Source: an uncultured Gemmatimonadales bacterium
Lineage (GTDB): Bacteria; Gemmatimonadota; Gemmatimonadetes; Gemmatimonadales; GWC2-71-9
Assembly (NCBI GenBank): GCA_963739455.1
Contig: CAVUAK010000002.1
Span: forward strand, 260,054 to 324,053
DNA length: 64,000 nucleotides
Reading direction: 5' to 3'
Part shown: one piece after another, positions 2,274 through 55,894 of the stretch
Numbering within the stretch: the stretch's first letter is position 1
Layout: each line of letters begins with the position of its first letter
The notes under the pieces: generated by a model
The model's database searches: none
What the model saw: only the letters and a program-made list of their open reading frames with translations
Told to the model about the DNA's origin: nothing
Program-made: the position numbers and the translations under genes

Positions 2274-2790
2274 CGGGAGGCACTGCCTTCCGCGCCAGCA
2301 GTACCCCGGCCACGACACTCACCAGGTAAAGCACGATCCCCACCCCATGCACCGCGCGACCGATCGCCAGGTCCCGGTGCAGCAGGTCAAGCTCGTCCAG
2401 GATCCACAACCAGTCATGTTCCCCGCCTCCCACCAGCGGCAGGTCCTGGGCCCGCGCGTCGCTGATGTAGCGCGCGATGTTCCAGCAGTTCTGGCCCGTC
2501 CACCACAGCGGCACCGTCGCCGCGTGCCAGTCGCGCTGCACGGCGAAATAGACCGCGAATGTGAGGGGGACAATCAGCTGGAAGAGCGTACCACCGAGCA
2601 CGTTCATGAACTCGCCGAACGGGGCGAACAGCAGGTGGCCCGTTTCGTGGATCGCGAGGTCGATGTTGTCGACGAAGCCGAAGTGACCGGGGTGCGTGGC
2701 CAGGAACCAGCCGTAGATCGCCAGGACGCCCGTCAGGATCAGCCGCGGATAGTCCCAGGGGCGTCGAGGTCCGGCACTGCTAACTTGCAC
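2263..2790 (-). CDS. membrane protein with HExGH motif (M50-like zinc peptidase family)
   Basis: AIHETGH within a TM segment; LGGTLFQL and YISDA...LPL...HDW conserved blocks. Confidence 0.65.
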   Translation of the reverse strand: MQVSSAGPRRPWDYPRLILTGVLAIYGWFLATHPGHFGFVDNIDLAIHETGHLLFAPFGEFMNVLGGTLFQLIVPLTFAVYFAVQRDWHAATVPLWWTGQNCWNIARYISDARAQDLPLVGGGEHDWLWILDELDLLHRDLAIGRAVHGVGIVLYLVSVVAGVLLARKAVPPVSQ

Positions 2791-2818
2791 GTTCGGCCTT
2801 TCATTTCCCTGAGGTCCG

Positions 2819-5236
2819 ATGCCTCACGACGAACTCGACGGCCTGGAAGTTGGCGCATACACCCTGGAACGTCCCCTCGGTCATGGGGGGATGGGCTCGG
2901 TCTGGCTCGCCCACCGCACGGACGGTCGCTTCGAGGGTCGTGTTGCCGTCAAGCTGATGAACCTGGCCCTGGTCGAGTCGCTCGCCGTGGAGCGGTTTCG
3001 CCGTGAGGGCTCGCTTCTCGCGCGGCTCACCCACCCCGGTATCGCGCGACTGCTCGACGCCGGCGTGGCTGCCACCCGCCAGCCATACCTCGTCATCGAA
3101 TACATCGATGGGTTGCCGATCGACCGGTACGCCGACCTCGCGGTGCTGTCGGTACCCGACCGTCTCAGCCTTGCGCTGCAGGTGCTCGACGCCCTGAGCC
3201 ATGCGCACACCAACTTTGTCGTTCACCGCGACATCAAGCCGACCAACATCCTCGTTACTCCCGACGGGACCGTCAAGCTGCTCGACTTCGGGATCGGGAA
3301 GCTCCTCGGCCAGGAAGAGGGAGGAGATGACAGCCAGCTCACTGCAGCGGGCGGTCGCGCCTTCACACCCGCCTTCGCGGCGCCTGAACAGGTACTCGGC
3401 GGGCCCATTACCATGGCGACCGACGTCTACTCGGTGGGCGTATTGGTCTACCTGCTCGTGGCGGGGCACCACCCGATGGCCGGGCCGGGACAGGCGCCCG
3501 CTTCAATCCCTGCCCTGAGCGATATCGAACCGGCGCGCATCGGGCTGGGCGACCTCGACAGCGTGCTGCTCAAGGCACTGAACCGCCCGCCCGCCGACCG
3601 CTACCAGACTGCGCAGGAGTTCGCGGACGACCTGCGCCGGTATCTCGCGCAGCGGCCCGTGCGCGCCCAGCCCGATTCCGCGACCTACCGGATGAGGAAG
3701 TTCCTTCGGCGGCATCGCGACCTGGTGATCGTCGGAACTGCGATCACCGCTGCCCTCATTGGCATGGCGACCTTCTCCTTTCGACAGATGACCGCGGCTC
3801 GGACCCAGCGCAACGTCGCCATCCGCTCCAGCCAGCGCGAGGGCGCGCTCAGTGAGCTCCAGGGAATCCTGGCTGCTGACCTGCCCGGCCCCGACGGAAA
3901 GTCCCTGTCGATGGCCGGCCGCATCGCGAAGGCCGAGGAAGTGCTTGGCCGCCGCTACCGCAACGATCCCTGGCTCGTCGCCACCGTGCTGGTCGATCTC
4001 TCCGGTCGTCACTTCGAGGTGGGTGACCTTGCGGCCCAGCGCGAGATGCTCGAGCGCGCCCGAGCGGTTGCGAAGCAGGCCAGCCTCGGCTCCCCGCTGG
4101 CACTGGCCGACTGCACGCGCGCCATCAATTTCTGGCTGCTCGATATCCTCGACTCGGCGCGCGCGGATGTCGCCGAGGCCAATGCGGCGCTGGCACGTGA
4201 TCCCGATCCGGATCTCTCGGTGAAATCCGTCTGTCTCGAGGCGGAGGGCAAGCTCCTCCAGTCGGCGGGCGAGACCGACCAGGCGGTGGCCCTGCTGGAA
4301 CAGGCGCTGGCCATCGAGCAGGCGGAGCCGAATGGCGGCCGCCAGCTCTCGGTCGAGAACTCGCTCGCCGAGGTGCTGCGCCTCTCGGGCCGCACGCGTG
4401 AGGCGGTGCCCCACTTCCGTCACATTCTCGCGGAACTGGAAGCGAACGGCTACGGTGACACCGACGCCTGGCCCAATGTCGTCGCGTTCCTCGCGGCGTC
4501 CCTGGAGGAACTGGGTGAGCTGGCCGAACTGAACGTCTCGCTTCGAGAGTATGTGCGCACCCGACAGGGCGCGTCCGGTGCACCGATCGCTTCGCGACTC
4601 TCCCTGCTTTACGGAGTGAGCTTCCTCCGACTGGGCGCGCTCGACTCGGCCGAATGGTGGATCGGGAAGGCGCTGGAGGATACCACCGGACGAGCCGGCC
4701 TCTTCGAGGCGCAGCTCCCCACGGTGCTGTCGCAGTTGCGGCTGGACCAGGGGCGCCTGGCGGACGCGCGTGTGCAGGTGGGCAAGCTGCCCGCGCGGGC
4801 ACGTGGCCAGCGCGCCACGGCGGCGATGATGCAGGCACGAGTCCGGCGGGCGCAGGGTGATGCCGATGGGGCCTCAAGGCTGCTGGAGCTCGAGCTGTCG
4901 AAGTTGGAGATTGACACCCTTCCCAAGCTGGCGCTCTTCACCCTTCCCCTGGTGACGGCGGGAGACTGGCGGCTGGCCCGCGCCGATGCGCACGGCGCCG
5001 ATTCGCTGGCTCGTCTGGCCCGCGAGGCAGCCGCAATCGATTCTCTTGCCCTTACCCGAAGCGCGCTTGTCGGCCGCGCCGAGTTGTTGCGCGCGAGGGC
5101 CCTTGCCGCCAACCGCGAGCTCGTCGAAGCGCGCAGGGCGGCAGAGCGTGCGGTGGCGGCCCTCGATAACGGCTACGGGAGTGAAAACGGTTGGTCGCGA
5201 ATGGCGCGGGAACTGGTGGACTCGCTGTCGCGCTAA
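2819..5236 (+). CDS. membrane Ser/Thr protein kinase with extracellular TPR-like helical domain
   Basis: GHGGMG, VAVK, HRDIKPTN, DFG, APE and DVYS motifs; one TM (LVIVGTAITAALIGMATF); Ala/Leu-rich helical repeats. Confidence 0.9.
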   Translation: MPHDELDGLEVGAYTLERPLGHGGMGSVWLAHRTDGRFEGRVAVKLMNLALVESLAVERFRREGSLLARLTHPGIARLLDAGVAATRQPYLVIEYIDGLPIDRYADLAVLSVPDRLSLALQVLDALSHAHTNFVVHRDIKPTNILVTPDGTVKLLDFGIGKLLGQEEGGDDSQLTAAGGRAFTPAFAAPEQVLGGPITMATDVYSVGVLVYLLVAGHHPMAGPGQAPASIPALSDIEPARIGLGDLDSVLLKALNRPPADRYQTAQEFADDLRRYLAQRPVRAQPDSATYRMRKFLRRHRDLVIVGTAITAALIGMATFSFRQMTAARTQRNVAIRSSQREGALSELQGILAADLPGPDGKSLSMAGRIAKAEEVLGRRYRNDPWLVATVLVDLSGRHFEVGDLAAQREMLERARAVAKQASLGSPLALADCTRAINFWLLDILDSARADVAEANAALARDPDPDLSVKSVCLEAEGKLLQSAGETDQAVALLEQALAIEQAEPNGGRQLSVENSLAEVLRLSGRTREAVPHFRHILAELEANGYGDTDAWPNVVAFLAASLEELGELAELNVSLREYVRTRQGASGAPIASRLSLLYGVSFLRLGALDSAEWWIGKALEDTTGRAGLFEAQLPTVLSQLRLDQGRLADARVQVGKLPARARGQRATAAMMQARVRRAQGDADGASRLLELELSKLEIDTLPKLALFTLPLVTAGDWRLARADAHGADSLARLAREAAAIDSLALTRSALVGRAELLRARALAANRELVEARRAAERAVAALDNGYGSENGWSRMARELVDSLSR

Positions 5237-50974: not shown

Positions 50975-51276
50975 GCGCGGAACGATAACAAGCGAGCCGG
51001 TGCGTTGTGGGGTGACCGAGAATCGTCAGGGGATGCGACACCATGCACCGAACTGCGCGCGCCCGGGATCGAAGCGGCCAGGAAGCGATTCTGTCGTCGT
51101 CCTGATACAGCCTCGGTCCACGAGGCTCGGATATGGGTCGAACGGCCTACGTGCAAGGGGCTGCACCCGCCTCTGCATACTGTTATTGCTGAATGGCTTA
51201 CCGAAGGACCGATGTGGGCGGAGTCGATGGCACGACTCCGGTATTACCAAGGGCAACCTCAACAGAAGGCTGCCCC

Positions 51277-51486
51277 ATGTCGTTGCTCGAGTACGTGACG
51301 CCGCGCAAGCTTGAGGACCCGGCTGACTACACGACGTCCAAGGCCATGCTCGTCAAGGAACGGCGCACCTGGCTCACCAGCGGAGCCAACGTCATCGAGG
51401 GGCGCGTGTGGCGCCACGCCGAGATCGTGATCGAGGCGAAGCACTCGCAGTGGGACCGCGAGAACTGCCGCCAGCGGGTCGCCTAG
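51277..51486 (+). CDS. small hypothetical protein (69 aa)
   Basis: ATG at 51277 after AGAAGG; GC3-rich codons; converges on rpsD. Confidence 0.5.
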   Translation: MSLLEYVTPRKLEDPADYTTSKAMLVKERRTWLTSGANVIEGRVWRHAEIVIEAKHSQWDRENCRQRVA

Positions 51487-51492
51487 GCTCGG

Positions 51493-52089
51493 CTAGCGCG
51501 AGTAGAACTCCACGACGAGCGGCAGCTGACAGATCACGGGGATCTGGGTTGCCTCGGGAAGCTCGCGCAGCCGGGCGCCGTCACCCCGAAGTTCCAGATA
51601 TGACGGTGCACGGGTGGCCTCCATGGCCATCACCACCTGCGGAATGGCGCGAGCCTTCTCCGTGAGCGCCACCTCGTCGCCCGGCTTCACCGCGTGGCTC
51701 GGGAAGGAAACCCGCCGCCCGTTCAGCTTCACGTGCCCGTGCACCACCAGCTGGCGCGCAGCGAAGATGGTGCGCGCGTAGCCGGCGCGAAGCACGAGCG
51801 CGTCGATGCGCGTCTCCAGCAACTGCAGGAGGGCCGCGCCCACGTTACCACCCCGTCGTGACGCTTCCTCGAAGTAATTCCTGAGCTGCCGCTCACCAAC
51901 ATTGTACTGCGCCCGCAGCCGCTGCTTCTCCATGAGCTGCCGCTTGTAGTTGGACATCTTGCCCGGCCGTTGGTTCTGGCCGTGCTGCCCCGGCGTGCCA
52001 GGACGCCGGTCCAGGTGCTTCTGCGCCTTGGGCGTGAGGGGAATGCCGAGCTGGCGCGAGATGCGCACCTTGGGACCGCGGAGATTCAT
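51493..52089 (-). CDS. rpsD: 30S ribosomal protein S4, paralog lacking the zinc ribbon
   Basis: PGQHG, EKQRLR..Y, LETRID, ARQLVVHGH and VVEFYSR; N-terminus GPKVRISRQLGIPLTPK has no CxxC; located outside the alpha operon. Confidence 0.92.
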   Translation of the reverse strand: MNLRGPKVRISRQLGIPLTPKAQKHLDRRPGTPGQHGQNQRPGKMSNYKRQLMEKQRLRAQYNVGERQLRNYFEEASRRGGNVGAALLQLLETRIDALVLRAGYARTIFAARQLVVHGHVKLNGRRVSFPSHAVKPGDEVALTEKARAIPQVVMAMEATRAPSYLELRGDGARLRELPEATQIPVICQLPLVVEFYSR

Positions 52090-52328
52090 GCGTCGCTTCC
52101 TTCAAAGCGGATGCCGAGTGACTGCTCGAGAGAACGGTAGATCTGCTGGAGGTTCGTGTTGGCCTCACCCAGTGCCGAGGCCAGCGCACCGAGACCCTCA
52201 TCGGTGACGTGCGCGGTAATGCCGCCCACCGAGATATGGATGGAGCCACAGCTGCACCGCTCCACTGCCACGAAGTCATTGGCTGCGAGCAGCTGGAGGG
52301 AGCCGCACTGGACTGAACGCGGTGTCAT
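52086..52328 (-). CDS. small Cys/His-containing hypothetical protein (80 aa)
   Basis: RBS GGAG; QCG...RCSCGSIH...AH; stop overlaps the rpsD start (ATGA). Confidence 0.65.
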   Translation of the reverse strand: MTPRSVQCGSLQLLAANDFVAVERCSCGSIHISVGGITAHVTDEGLGALASALGEANTNLQQIYRSLEQSLGIRFEGSDA

Positions 52329-52347
52329 CGGGTCTCCGGGTCAGGCA

Positions 52348-52384
52348 TTGAGAATGACGCGCCACGGTTGAGAATGAATGTCAA
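52348..52384. promoter_or_regulatory. Fur/Zur-like operator
   Basis: Imperfect palindrome TTGAGAAT-G-AATGTCAA (52368-52384) plus a second TTGAGAATGA 20 bp away (52348-52357); AT-rich in a GC-rich background. Confidence 0.55.
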
Positions 52385-52421
52385 CCGATATTTCCAGCGC
52401 CAACAATGTAACCCGAAGCAA

Positions 52422-52895
52422 TTACTCGGCAATAGGAAATCCTACGGAGGCCAGCCGATCGGCCGGCACGGCAAGCAGCAGGTCGATTCGCCGCGAAAGG
52501 AGGTTCCGCGCCCCCTCGAATGCGCGCTGCTTCACCTCATTCGATCCCTCCACCTCGGCGGGGTCGTCCATGCCCCAATGGGCGAATGTTGGCTGACCAG
52601 GAAAGACCGGGCACGCTTCCTTCGCATTGTCACAGACAGTGATGATCAGGTCCCAGTGCTGGTTCACGAGCCCGTCGATCCCGCGCGGTTGCCTGCCCTC
52701 CCAGGAAATGCCGATGTCGGCAAGTGCCTGAATGGCGTATGGATTGACTCGCGCCGCCGGCCGGGAGCCGGCGCTCTCGGCGTGAAAGCGGCCCTGCCCC
52801 TTCCGGTTGAGGAGTGCCTCAGCCATCTGGCTGCGCGCCGAATTGCCGGTGCAGAGGAACAGCACGCGATACGGCTGCCTCGCCAGACTAGACAT
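52422..52895 (-). CDS. arsC: thioredoxin-coupled arsenate reductase (LMW-PTP fold)
   Basis: LFLCTGNSARSQMAE, TVCDNAKEACP and HW..DDP motifs. Confidence 0.9.
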   Translation of the reverse strand: MSSLARQPYRVLFLCTGNSARSQMAEALLNRKGQGRFHAESAGSRPAARVNPYAIQALADIGISWEGRQPRGIDGLVNQHWDLIITVCDNAKEACPVFPGQPTFAHWGMDDPAEVEGSNEVKQRAFEGARNLLSRRIDLLLAVPADRLASVGFPIAE

Positions 52896-53547
52896 GCTTC
52901 GTTCCCTTTCTGAGATAGTCATATGCGACGACGGCGAGGCCCGCGCCGACCATCGGGCCAACCCAGTAGATCCACTGCTCCTGCCAAATGTCATTCGCGA
53001 AGGCTGGTCCGAAGCTGCGCGCCGGATTCATGCTCGCCCCTGTCAGCGGCCCCGCCATGAGTGCCTCGCCTCCCACCGTCGCGCCGATGGCGAGGCCGGC
53101 CACCGCGCCCGCCACGCGTGCGTCGGTCGCCACGGCCATGATCACGAGCATGAGGAAAAATGTCAGGACACCCTCGAGGGCGACGGCGGATCCGGGAGGC
53201 AGGATGGTGGTCGTCATGCTCCCGCGAGCTGACGCACCGAGTAGCACGCGCAGGAAGAGGGCGGCGACGGTGGCACCGGTGAGTTGCGCGCCGACATAAG
53301 GGACCACGTCAGCTCGGGGGAAGCGTCGGGCCAGCCAGAAGCCGAGTGTCACGGCGGGATTGAGGTGCGCGCCCGAGATATGGCCAAGGGCATACACTGC
53401 GGCGATGAGGACAAAGGCGAATGCCAACGCGACGCCGGTGTGGGTTACCGAATCAGGCACGAGACGATCAACCGCCGCTGCCCCCGGGCCAACCAGGACG
53501 AGCATGAAGGTGCCGACTGCTTCTGCGGCAAGCCGCGCGCCTTTCAC
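52888..53547 (-). CDS. MIP-family channel (aquaporin/aquaglyceroporin), probable As(III) channel
   Basis: SGAHLNPAVT and GASMNPARS; GTG start overlaps the upstream stop; ars context. Confidence 0.88.
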   Translation of the reverse strand: MKGARLAAEAVGTFMLVLVGPGAAAVDRLVPDSVTHTGVALAFAFVLIAAVYALGHISGAHLNPAVTLGFWLARRFPRADVVPYVGAQLTGATVAALFLRVLLGASARGSMTTTILPPGSAVALEGVLTFFLMLVIMAVATDARVAGAVAGLAIGATVGGEALMAGPLTGASMNPARSFGPAFANDIWQEQWIYWVGPMVGAGLAVVAYDYLRKGTKHV

Positions 53548-53993
53548 TTCGACCCTGCCATCCGACGCATGACCACCGCCGAAGCCGGACAAGCCACGGC
53601 GAACTCCACGGAATTGCGGATCCCATGCGGCACGTCGCTGCGCGCCGTCACCTCGAAACCACGGCGATGGAAGAATGCCTCGGCGGTGTCGGTAAGAAGG
53701 AAAGTGTGGCGAGCGCCGAGTTCCCAGGCCATCGCGAGGGCGGCGTCCGAAAGGAGCGCCCCGAGACCGCCACCACGGTGTGAAGGCGCCACGACCACCG
53801 ACCGCAGCAGTGCGGCGTCACCATAGAGCTCGAGGCCTGCCGCCCCCACAACGAGATCGTCGTCCTCGGCGACCAGAAAGTGCTCGAGCTCCTCAGAGAG
53901 GCCATCGAGCGGCAGCCTGGCCGCAGCAAGGAGCTCGCAGACGCCACGACGATCGGCGGCGCCTGCGATGCGAATGGCGGCTCTCGTGCTCAC
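53544..53993 (-). CDS. arsN2: arsenic resistance GNAT N-acetyltransferase (ArsN2-like)
   Basis: [17 protein letters not shown]...[16 protein letters not shown] and SVEF...CPASA.VM. Confidence 0.8.
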
Positions 53994-54814
53994 GCAGCCG
54001 GCTTCCGCGCCCGGATGAATGCCCCCATGACGCGGCCGCCCACTTCGCGCGCCAGGACTTCGGTATCGAGGCCCGCCCCGCCAAGGAACGCCGCGGCGTC
54101 CTCAAACTCGTAGACTCGCGTCGGCTCGATGGAGACGTCGGTGAAGCCAGTCGCCTCCAGCATCGAGATGAACTGCCTGCTCCTCGAGCGCGCCTGCCAC
54201 GCAGCCGACCCAGAGTTCCATGCTGTGGCGCACCGCGGGCGGTACATCGCCCCGGATCACCACGTCCGACACCGCCAGCCTGCCACCCGGCTTGAGCACC
54301 CGAAAGGCCTCGGCGAAGACCTGGCGCTTGTCCACCGACAGGTTGATGACGCAGTTCGAGATGATCACGTCCACCGTATTGGCAGGCAGCGGGATCTCCT
54401 CGATGGTGCCCTTGAGGAACTCGACGTTTGTGGCGCCGGCCTTCAGGCTTGTTCGACCGGGCGAGGGCCAGCATCTCGTCAGTCATGTCCAGGCCATACG
54501 CCTTGCCGGTGGGCCCGACGCGCTGCGCCGAGAGCAGCACGTCGATGCCGCCGCCGCTGCCGAGGTCGAGTACGACTTCGCCTGCGTGCAGGTCCGCGAG
54601 GGCGGTGGGGTTGCCGCACCCGAGCGACGCGAGGACTGCGGTCTCGGGCAAGGGTCGCCGTCTGCTCGGCGCTGTAGAGGTTGGCAGTGATCGGGTCATC
54701 GGATCCGGCGCCGCAGGATCCGCCGCAGCAACTGTTCGACTGCCCCTGCACTACCCTCAGGGCGGCGCCGGCGTAGGCCTGGCGCACCGCTTCCCTCGTG
54801 TCGGTGTTGCTCAT
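53990..54814 (-). CDS. arsM: arsenite S-adenosylmethionine methyltransferase (three frameshifts)
   Basis: [34 protein letters not shown] and WVGCVAGA reconstructed across frames. Confidence 0.9.
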
Positions 54815-54825
54815 TGCAGTGCTCC

Positions 54826-54841
54826 ATCAAGAATGGTTGAT
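54826..54841. promoter_or_regulatory. ArsR operator upstream of arsM
   Basis: ATCAA-GAATGG-TTGAT. Confidence 0.75.
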
Positions 54842-54859
54842 GCATTAGAGCCGAACAAT

Positions 54860-55178
54860 TCAGCCACAGCAGCGGGCCGCCTTCCTCCAGCCGCTGGATG
54901 GCGCACTGGTGAGGAAAGGTCGCGACCTCGTCGACCGCTTCGTCGACCAGGGTGTAGTAGACCCAACGTCCGTCGCGCCGGTCGGTGACCAGGCCGGCGT
55001 CCTTGAGGACCTTGAGATGGAAGGACAGGCGCGACTGGGCGGCGTCGAGGGCGCTTGTCAACTCGCACACGCACTGCTCGCCCGGCTTGAGCAGGGCGAT
55101 GATCTCCAGGCGAGTCGGGTCGGACAGGGCCCGGAGGCGCTGCACGGTGCGGGTGAGGTCGACGGTCGGTTGGGCCAT
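54860..55178 (-). CDS. arsR: ArsR/SmtB-family repressor (frameshift near 54915)
   Basis: [26 protein letters not shown] and GRWVYY; removing one base gives the end [12 protein letters not shown]. Confidence 0.9.
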
Positions 55179-55183
55179 GACGT

Positions 55184-55213
55184 AGTATACATCAAGTTGT
55201 ATTGATATGTCAA
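55184..55213 (-). promoter_or_regulatory. arsR promoter with ArsR operator in the spacer
   Basis: Minus strand TTGACA-18 nt-TATACT; ATCAA-GTTGTA-TTGAT at 55191-55206; ATG 5 nt after the -10. Confidence 0.8.
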
Positions 55214-55278
55214 GCGGGGCCACGACCGAATGACCGGCCCCGGATTGCGTCGGCGCGACCGACTTGCTAGCCTGCCGC

Positions 55279-55894
55279 ATGACCGACTCAACTCCCAAGG
55301 GAACGCCGCTCGGCGCCGGCCGACTGGAAGCGTTCAGCGACGGCGTCCTCGCCATCATCATCACGATCATGGTGCTCGAGCTGAAGGTGCCGCACGACGA
55401 CTCGGTCGCGGCGCTTGCTCCCCTGATACCGGTGTTACTGAGCTACCTGCTCAGCTTCGTGTACGTCGGCATCTACTGGACCAACCACCACCACATGATG
55501 CATACCTGCGCCAGGGTGACGGGCCCGATACTCTGGGCCAATCTTCACCTGCTCTTCTGGCTGTCGCTGGTGCCGTTCGTCACCGGATGGATGGGCGAGA
55601 ATCACTTCGCGTCGATCCCGACAGCCTTGTACGGCGTGGTGCTCTTCATGGCAGGGATGGCCTACGTGATCCTGCAGCAGCAGATCATCGCGTCGCAGGG
55701 TCCGGACTCGTTGCTGACAGCGCGCCGTGCAGGGCGACCGGAAGGGGAAGGCATCCGAACTGCTGTATCTGGTGGCGATCCTGCTGGCATTTCGGTGGCG
55801 GTGGGCCGCGCAGGCGATCTACGTCTTCGTGGCGCTGATGTGGCTGGTGCCCGACAAGCGCATCGAGGAGACACTCGCCAGCCGGGGGAGCTGA
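55279..55894 (+). CDS. TMEM175-family potassium channel (frameshift near 55725)
   Basis: RLEAFSDGVLAIIITIMVLEL, YWTNHH, NLHLLFWLSLVPF and WLVPDKRIE. Confidence 0.88.

Follow-up and report, generated by a model that had tools for sequence, protein, structure and literature searches.

A cysteine-free ribosomal protein S4 paralog coupled to a small DUF6686-like gene behind a putative iron-type operator in an uncultured Gemmatimonadales bacterium

We characterized a two-gene locus in a 64,000-nucleotide (nt) stretch of DNA from an uncultured Gemmatimonadales bacterium (assembly GCA_963739455.1, contig CAVUAK010000002.1, positions 260,054 to 324,053), here called the window, in which positions are counted from the first letter. 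The locus lies on the minus strand and consists of a small open reading frame (ORF) of 80 amino acids (aa), followed by a gene for a paralog of ribosomal protein S4 that lacks the zinc-ribbon cysteines. On balance, and with confidence slightly better than even, we read the pair as an operon under a Fur-family operator, most likely responding to iron through the single Fur homolog found in the genome. A first-pass annotation of the same DNA had viewed the pair as a zinc-starvation module repressed by Zur; the gene structure it described was borne out by our analysis, but its zinc frame was not.

The S4 gene (51493-52089, minus strand) encodes a full-length protein of 198 aa that belongs to the bacterial ribosomal protein S4 (uS4) family by curated equivalog models (TIGR01017 rpsD_bact, full-length match, 196.7 bits vs. 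a cut-off of 177.2; NF003717, 213.7 bits vs. 116) and by both Pfam domains (Ribosomal_S4, PF00163, 1.1e-21; S4 domain, PF01479, 2.6e-15). As had been claimed, it lies outside the alpha operon and is devoid of the zinc-ribbon cysteines, with no cysteine at all among its first 40 residues. Exactly one other S4 gene was found in the assembly (genome G000; 3.6 Mb in four contigs, 84% complete), and the concern that the window might hold the only rpsD of the genome was thereby removed. This standard copy (G000:C2:478835-479377) is located outside the window between rpsK and rpoA, in the order rpsM-rpsK-rpsD-rpoA-rplQ, and has cysteines at positions 9, 12, 26, and 31. The two S4 proteins of this genome are only 41% identical, with a 6-residue gap in the N-terminal part of the paralog, whereas the paralog shares 50-67% identity with many S4 proteins elsewhere (by source name, 63-67% in Gemmatimonadales, 54% in Acidobacteriota and 53% in Caldilineaceae). 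Such a combination has a precedent in the C+/C- paralogs of Chen, Roberts and Luthey-Schulten, who, in the available portion of their paper, describe a Cys4-containing (C+) S4 in the alpha operon and a cysteine-free C-(IV) copy elsewhere that was acquired by transfer (Chen et al., 2009; PMC3087516). The marks given there for C-(IV) proteins are the absence of the Cys4 motif, Leu or Phe in place of Glu15, Gly or Pro in place of Leu21, and a short N-terminal deletion (PMC3087516). In the pairwise alignment of the two proteins studied here, on which this assignment is based, L14 of the paralog stands opposite E15 and P20 opposite L21, alongside the 6-residue gap and the location outside the alpha operon. 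Most likely, the paralog is an S4 without zinc ribbon that was gained by horizontal transfer.

The small ORF (52086-52328, minus strand) ends within the start of the S4 gene. Its TGA runs into the ATG of the latter, and the ATGA overlap on which the first-pass annotation had based translational coupling can be read directly at 52086-52089. When compared with four metagenome relatives, the ORF shows a pN/pS of 0.06-0.16 (synonymous ~0.4-0.5, non-synonymous 0.03-0.08 per site), and a full HMMER scan of 1.84 billion representatives returned 70 representative-cluster matches at E<=1e-3. Repetitive long proteins among these matches align with the helix through low complexity, and proteins of 70-110 aa constitute the family. 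The low pN/pS and the homologs together indicate that the ORF is more than a chance reading frame and is a real gene, as had been supposed. It also carries the predicted Cys/His motif, C8-x16-C25-x-C27-G-x2-H31. In an alignment of 48 family members, C25 and C27 are invariant (48/48 each), G28 is present in 47, H31 in 44 and C8 in 42, and the spacing C-x16/17-C-x-C-G-x2-H is constant. This conserved three-Cys/one-His set probably binds a metal.

Assignment of the small protein to a known family was less straightforward. The protein itself gave no match to Pfam or NCBIfam, and PF20391 (DUF6686) was absent even at E<=10; four other family members likewise gave no match to the DUF6686 model at E<=10, and one of the 48 members reached it at E 0.046; none of the 48 matched any Pfam family convincingly. 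By contrast, a profile-profile comparison (hhalign) of the family with a six-member DUF6686 set gave a probability of 81.5% (E 1.1e-5) over 44 columns that span the Cys motif and the next strands. We therefore call the protein DUF6686-like, a divergent relative that stays below the gathering threshold of PF20391, and do not file it as a member. It differs from DUF6686 in its motif (CxC-G-xx-H vs. CxxC-G-xx-E) and in being 80 aa long without the C-terminal half. An AlphaFold2 model built on the family alignment (pLDDT 88.8) predicts four beta-strands and one long helix. Foldseek found no match to this model in the PDB at E<=0.001. The best structural alignments by VIA-align over 48,161 chains (Z 5.0; COMM-domain-like, Pur-alpha and PC4-like beta-sheet-plus-helix proteins) reflect a common arrangement, and no fold relative is claimed. 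A profile search against sequences of solved structures yielded nothing below E 0.0079, the matches being coiled or repeat proteins. In the ESM Atlas, the nearest clusters were unnamed Myxococcota and Acidobacteriota proteins at 0.87, and one cluster carried DUF6686 on 10% of its members, which we regard as a lead only.

Upstream of the pair lies the Fur-family-like palindrome that the first-pass annotation had pointed out. It spans 21 bp (52366-52386, with a 7-1-7 core at 52369-52383) and is located 38-58 bp upstream of the small ORF's ATG. An exact 10-nt copy of its left half-site follows at 52348-52357, 20 bp from the first copy and 20-29 bp upstream of the ATG; only three exact copies of this half-site occur genome-wide, two of them here. 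A Shine-Dalgarno-like GGAG (52334-52337, minus strand), 6-9 nt before the ATG, is invariant in a six-sequence alignment. Literature consensus boxes for Fur and Zur returned mostly coding-region noise when scanned over the genome and were replaced by a matrix derived from the clade. A scan of the genome with the 7-1-7 core produced two outliers, at 12/12 and 11/12 defined positions. The former overlaps the beginning of a cytochrome c gene, behind which lies an FTR1 iron permease gene (families Cytochrom_C and FTR1 confirmed), and the latter is the site in the window. Orthologs of the cytochrome c-FTR1 locus were sought in 40 other genomes of the same family and matched in 33 of 41, counting G000; one matched genome was flagged as unpublished and its sequence was left unused. 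Among the 29 loci scored from other genomes, 22 carry the palindrome with at least 10 of 12 core positions, and these 22 sites, none from G000, served to build the 21-bp matrix. Applied to the 3.6 Mb of G000, the matrix ranked the genome's own FTR1 site first (31.2 bits) and the site before the small ORF second (22.2 bits), the third reaching 13.8 bits. Five complete or near-complete relatives contain one or two palindrome sites each, located at FTR1-cytochrome c and PepSY_TM genes, vs. none in a reversed-pattern control. The operator is also retained at 17-22.5 bits in the metagenome relatives L032, L033, L035, and L038, even though synonymous sites of the adjacent gene are about half saturated; in L033, the most distant of the four, both repeats are unchanged and the spacers differ. 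These comparisons argue that the palindrome is a real Fur-family-type operator linked to iron genes, following the consensus of the clade and common to this locus and iron-uptake genes.

Upstream of the operator lies a possible promoter (52405-52432, minus strand; -35 at 52427-52432, -10 at 52405-52410), suggested by blocks conserved in G000, L032, L033, L035, and L038, with similar hexamers in G007, G009, and G010. A consensus promoter and terminator scan did not report this candidate; its only match, on the plus strand, was made by the two repeats, and it found no terminator. If the hexamers were used, the palindrome would be placed inside the transcript, where it could act as RNA, i.e., as a hairpin in the 5′ untranslated leader through which S4 regulates its own operon as it does on other leaders. 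The palindrome can in fact form a 7-bp stem with a 9-nt loop, both natural changes in the stem (L033 and L038) give G-U wobble pairs, and another helix is predicted between the second repeat and the Shine-Dalgarno sequence. However, compensatory double changes are absent from all 15 predicted pairs, the consensus energy amounts to only -9.9 kcal/mol, and a search of Rfam over 51300-52600 gave no match at E<=10. Moreover, an S4-binding RNA leaves unexplained why the same palindrome precedes unrelated iron genes in many genomes. We consider the hairpin very improbable as the explanation of the palindrome, although the hairpin and operator readings are not mutually exclusive.

The small-protein family is found mainly in another phylum, where its surroundings can be compared. 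A scan with the motif pattern, using one genome per species, yielded 13 loci, whose titles name Kofleriaceae, Haliangiales or other Myxococcota/Deltaproteobacteria throughout. Profile searches detected the family in 23 of 301 Myxococcota genomes, in two (one marginally) of 400 other Gemmatimonadota genomes and in one of 40 close relatives. A box of at least 16 bits lies between -250 and +30 of the projected gene start at 19 of 31 Myxococcota loci; the other 256 kb of these loci contain seven such matches, several of which precede neighboring receptor or S4 genes. Among 120 ORFs adjoining 33 loci, the recurring families are Plug (7), TonB barrel (5), HmuY (4), HemS, ChuX, S4 and cytochrome c (3 each), and FecCD and imelysin (2 each). 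In three 10-Mb Myxococcota genomes, the core pattern occurs at 2, 3, and 10 sites, vs. none in controls, and the genes behind these sites encode FeoA, FeoB, a ferritin-like protein, a TonB receptor, two imelysins and HmuY, as well as three copies of the small ORF and one AhpC-S4 pair. The family thus appears to be a regular member of iron/heme-uptake regulons in Myxococcota. A search for DUF6686 itself in the 301 Myxococcota genomes found no match, but its controls also returned nothing, so that absence is not shown. At locus L068 (950-1793, minus strand), a box precedes the small ORF, and a ferritin-like, bacterioferritin-type gene follows it directly; in many bacteria, bfd occupies the same place directly upstream of a bacterioferritin-type gene. 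A second unannotated protein of ~130-180 aa with a shared Trp/His-rich motif adjoins the small ORF in several Myxococcota loci (L023:4207-4746, L025:3512-3910, L031:4285-4686, and L058:5651-6061), and the L023 copy has no Pfam family.

Which metal the operator might serve can be judged from these neighbors and from the regulators of the genome. Since the box precedes iron genes in Myxococcota, where it marks an iron regulon, we read it as a Fur rather than a Zur site. One clear Fur-family gene was found in the assembly (G000:C1:1964407-1964757); its best NCBIfam models are Fur (112 bits), PerR (89) and Zur (50), all below their cut-offs. The alternative favored by the first-pass annotation is that Zur represses the operon and that, under zinc limitation, the cysteine-free S4 replaces its zinc-binding counterpart, thereby sparing or releasing zinc. 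The pair does have the classical C+/C- arrangement, boxes of Fur-family regulators for different metals look alike, and an 84%-complete genome with one Fur-family gene could employ a multi-metal regulator or lack a Zur gene that was not assembled. Zur-controlled alternative ribosomal proteins are, in addition, well established for other proteins, as stated in the available part of Chen et al. (PMC3087516). Against this stands the operator itself, which is common to the FTR1 iron permease in Gemmatimonadota and, in Myxococcota, to feoAB, ferritin-like, hmuY, TonB receptor and imelysin genes. An AT-rich palindrome just upstream of the single znuA was looked for by reading, and none was seen; no listed site of the genome scan lies nearby, and the best match to the cobW family is UreG-like and adjoins urease genes. 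L31, L33, L36, and S14 each have one match in this incomplete assembly, leaving S4 as the sole duplicate among the five proteins tested. Nor does the premise that cysteine-free S4 paralogs are typically repressed by Zur agree with the accessible text of Chen et al. (2009), in which a search of 26 genomes found no Zur site near any paralogous S4 (PMC3087516). Zur control of this operon accordingly strikes us as improbable.

The association of the small protein with a cysteine-free S4 is not confined to the window. In G010, a member of the same genus, the same pair occurs with the same 4-nt overlap, its S4 being 64% and its small protein 41% identical to those of the window. In G037, the gene 4 nt ahead of a cysteine-free S4 (45% identical) encodes a 121-aa protein that is a member of Pfam DUF6686 (26.2 bits vs. 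a cut-off of 23.9). DUF6686 was detected in five of 400 Gemmatimonadota genomes, and a cysteine-free S4 gene follows directly in four of the five; the fifth gene, in G212, follows a HemS gene. Two S4 genes each are present in G133, G219, G269, and G010, and one in G212. Just upstream of the DUF6686 gene, G133 has a box of 33.4 bits and G269 one of 16.7 bits, and in G212 a box of 22.3 bits precedes hemS. Among the Myxococcota small-protein loci, 3 of 33 have a cysteine-free S4 within ~4-5 kb, with a box in each cluster, and 30 have none. In L064, the small ORF and the S4 are co-directional with a 31-nt gap, behind a TonB receptor gene with a 25-bit box; in L028, they diverge around a common 33.9-bit box; and in L023, the S4 is convergent, 1.1 kb away from the small ORF, and has its own 21-bit box. 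The linkage is real and recurrent, strongest in Gemmatimonadota, and non-obligatory. The first-pass annotation had spoken of a dedicated S4 partner; recurrence directly upstream of the cysteine-free S4 in Gemmatimonadota supports the linkage, and the 30 Myxococcota loci speak against exclusive dedication. A complex prediction with the small protein and the S4 paralog, both given as alignments, scored 0.00 in both runs and speaks neither for nor against binding.

Three further arrangements were observed at these or similar loci. In L028, from a Deltaproteobacteria metagenome-assembled genome, a uL3-like gene (2425-3171, minus strand; Ribosomal_L3, 4.7e-11) follows the box-sharing cysteine-free S4, and the two may form a two-protein alternative ribosomal operon. 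In L114 (1538-2710, plus strand; Myxococcota genome G419), an iron box is followed by a gene for an AhpC-type peroxiredoxin and, 6 nt on, by a cysteine-free S4. In L192 (385-1827, plus strand), the DUF6686 domain shares the open frame of a HemS/ChuX heme-degrading gene or comes right after it; this locus has a 22.3-bit box and no adjoining S4, and its genome contains a single S4.

The loci without S4 raise the alternative that the two genes are merely co-regulated neighbors, the small protein acting in iron or heme handling, e.g., as a small redox or metal carrier, with the S4 paralog as a transferred passenger. The heme- and iron-uptake genes that surround the 30 S4-free Myxococcota loci, the ferritin-like gene behind the small ORF in L068, the DUF6686 domain after hemS in L192, and the decay of the module in relatives would all be expected, and stand-alone C- S4 genes are known to transfer horizontally, according to the available text of Chen et al. 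(PMC3087516). However, G000/G010, G037, G219/G269, G133, and L064 all show tight coupling, with the genes overlapping by 4 nt or lying 4-31 nt apart, and the small proteins of these lineages are only remotely alike. Adjacency to S4 also goes with the presence of a paralog in the five genomes tested. By chance, an S4 gene would fall within a 10-kb window at ~0.003 per locus (a rough figure that takes about two S4 genes and a genome of ~6-7 Mb), vs. the 3 of 33 seen. A mere neighborhood of two functions with little or no connection appears rather unlikely to us.

An iron-responsive operon could work as follows. When iron is sufficient, a repressor would occupy the 21-bp palindrome and the neighboring half-site and block transcription; this repressor is likely the Fur homolog, which would sit on the operator when loaded with iron and leave it under iron limitation. 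The operon would then be transcribed and its two reading frames translated as a coupled pair. It is plausible that the S4 paralog is built into newly made 30S subunits, in addition to or instead of the Cys4 S4 of the alpha operon, or that it acts through the known RNA-binding and repressor roles of S4. More speculatively, the small protein may hold a metal or a cluster via C8, C25, C27, and H31 and act on or with S4. A broader proposal, which we offer as doubtful but worth stating, is that DUF6686-like proteins are iron- or iron-sulfur-sensing partners of cysteine-free S4, and that the two jointly build an iron-starvation 30S subunit or shut down ribosomal-protein synthesis via the repressor activity of S4, making a Fur-controlled counterpart of the Zur-controlled alternative ribosome. 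If so, iron instead of zinc could occupy the Cys4 ribbon that the standard S4 carries in these phyla.

Several observations weigh against an iron-responsive operon or restrict its reach. No box above 11 bits is found at the loci of G010, where the pair is intact, G219, or G037, and Fur-type control is consequently not universal for the pair. A cysteine-free S4 gene is present in 116 of 301 Myxococcota genomes; 60 of these genes were sampled, 59 of them outside the alpha operon. Only two of the 60 are preceded by a box at a distance of up to 1.5 kb, and the small ORF does not occur within 2.5 kb of any of them. A general link between cysteine-free S4 and the iron box in Myxococcota was rejected on this count (2/60), the S4 paralogs as a class not being iron-box genes. 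The module also erodes in relatives. Within the genus, it is intact only in G000 and G010; in G007 only the last 19 codons of the small ORF are left ahead of an intact S4 paralog, and in G009 both genes are truncated. The variant of the small ORF at L036:1154-1252 has lost the box together with the first 46 codons, and the one at L038:2983-3051 is, after an in-frame deletion, a 27-codon remnant that still overlaps S4. The module is thus sporadic, dispensable and decaying in relatives. Furthermore, the promoter-like hexamers, if real, put the box downstream of the transcription start, which is less usual for Fur; the Fur homolog scores under every curated cut-off, with PerR as the second-best model; and the incompleteness of the assembly means that a Zur gene could be missing from it.

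The textbook example of metal-driven ribosome remodeling is provided by zinc-free paralogs of ribosomal proteins. The locus resembles the Zur-regulated L31, L33, L36, S14, S18, L28, and L32 paralogs of Bacillus, Streptomyces, and Mycobacterium in that a cysteine-free paralog of a Cys4 protein stands behind a Fur-family palindrome. Unlike in those systems, the operator in the window groups with iron and heme genes, S4 is the only duplicated protein of the five tested, and a small Cys/His protein is probably translated along with it. Two small proteins of Fur regulons also invite comparison, namely Bfd, the Cys-rich bacterioferritin-associated ferredoxin, and HemP, which is involved in heme uptake. 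Like them, the family described here heads iron/heme-uptake or ferritin operons behind a Fur box, and it is Cys-rich as Bfd is, but it matches no Pfam model, has a different order of ligands and is linked to a ribosomal protein. S4 has been the odd one out among alternative ribosomal proteins, its paralogs having been catalogued in 2009 with neither regulator nor rationale, as far as the accessible part of that catalog goes (PMC3087516). While the C+/C- paralogy itself is already known, the same text contains no regulatory site or partner gene for these S4 copies and makes no mention of Gemmatimonadota (PMC3087516), in contrast to the Fur-type operator and the coupled small gene described here. 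Our literature search found nothing on an operator for an S4 paralog, on association with iron instead of zinc, or on a coupled partner of the DUF6686 type, and no mention of DUF6686. The locus adds a putative regulatory input for an S4 paralog, through an operator common to iron-uptake genes, a first candidate partner gene, and a first context for DUF6686 and its shorter relatives, which are common in Myxococcota iron/heme regulons. The nearest functional precedent is the alternative-ribosome operon of M. smegmatis, which is regulated by Zur and yet, as described in the available part of the report, required for the cells to grow when the medium is depleted of iron (PMC7431078). Should the iron link prove right, alternative ribosomal proteins would be more than a zinc story, which would fit the unexplained iron phenotype of the mycobacterial mutant (PMC7431078).

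Directly upstream of the pair, on the same strand, the window contains a row of arsenic-resistance genes (52422-55370, minus strand). It comprises arsC of the low-molecular-weight phosphatase type (52422-52994), a MIP channel (52888-53592), a GNAT acetyltransferase (53544-53993), a methyltransferase (53893-54699) and an ArsR-type regulator (54696-55370). The scan showed no terminator between arsC and the small ORF, so that read-through into the latter is possible. The methyltransferase has a Pfam match over residues 38-84 only, and the remainder of a typical methyltransferase is read in a different frame (ORFs 54102-54374 and 53990-54247); this looks like a frameshift in the gene, unless it reflects a sequencing error.

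No public sequencing run contained more than 0.19 of the sampled words of the stretch. At a threshold of 85% likeness, one metatranscriptome yielded a 151-nt contig over 51534-51681, within the S4 gene, with 20 differences, which is too weak to claim expression. On the other side of the pair, a 97-aa ORF with no Pfam or NCBIfam family (51193-51486, plus strand) converges on the S4 paralog, the two stop codons being 6 bp apart. It is kept beside the module in G009, and a metatranscriptome run contains a contig 99% alike.

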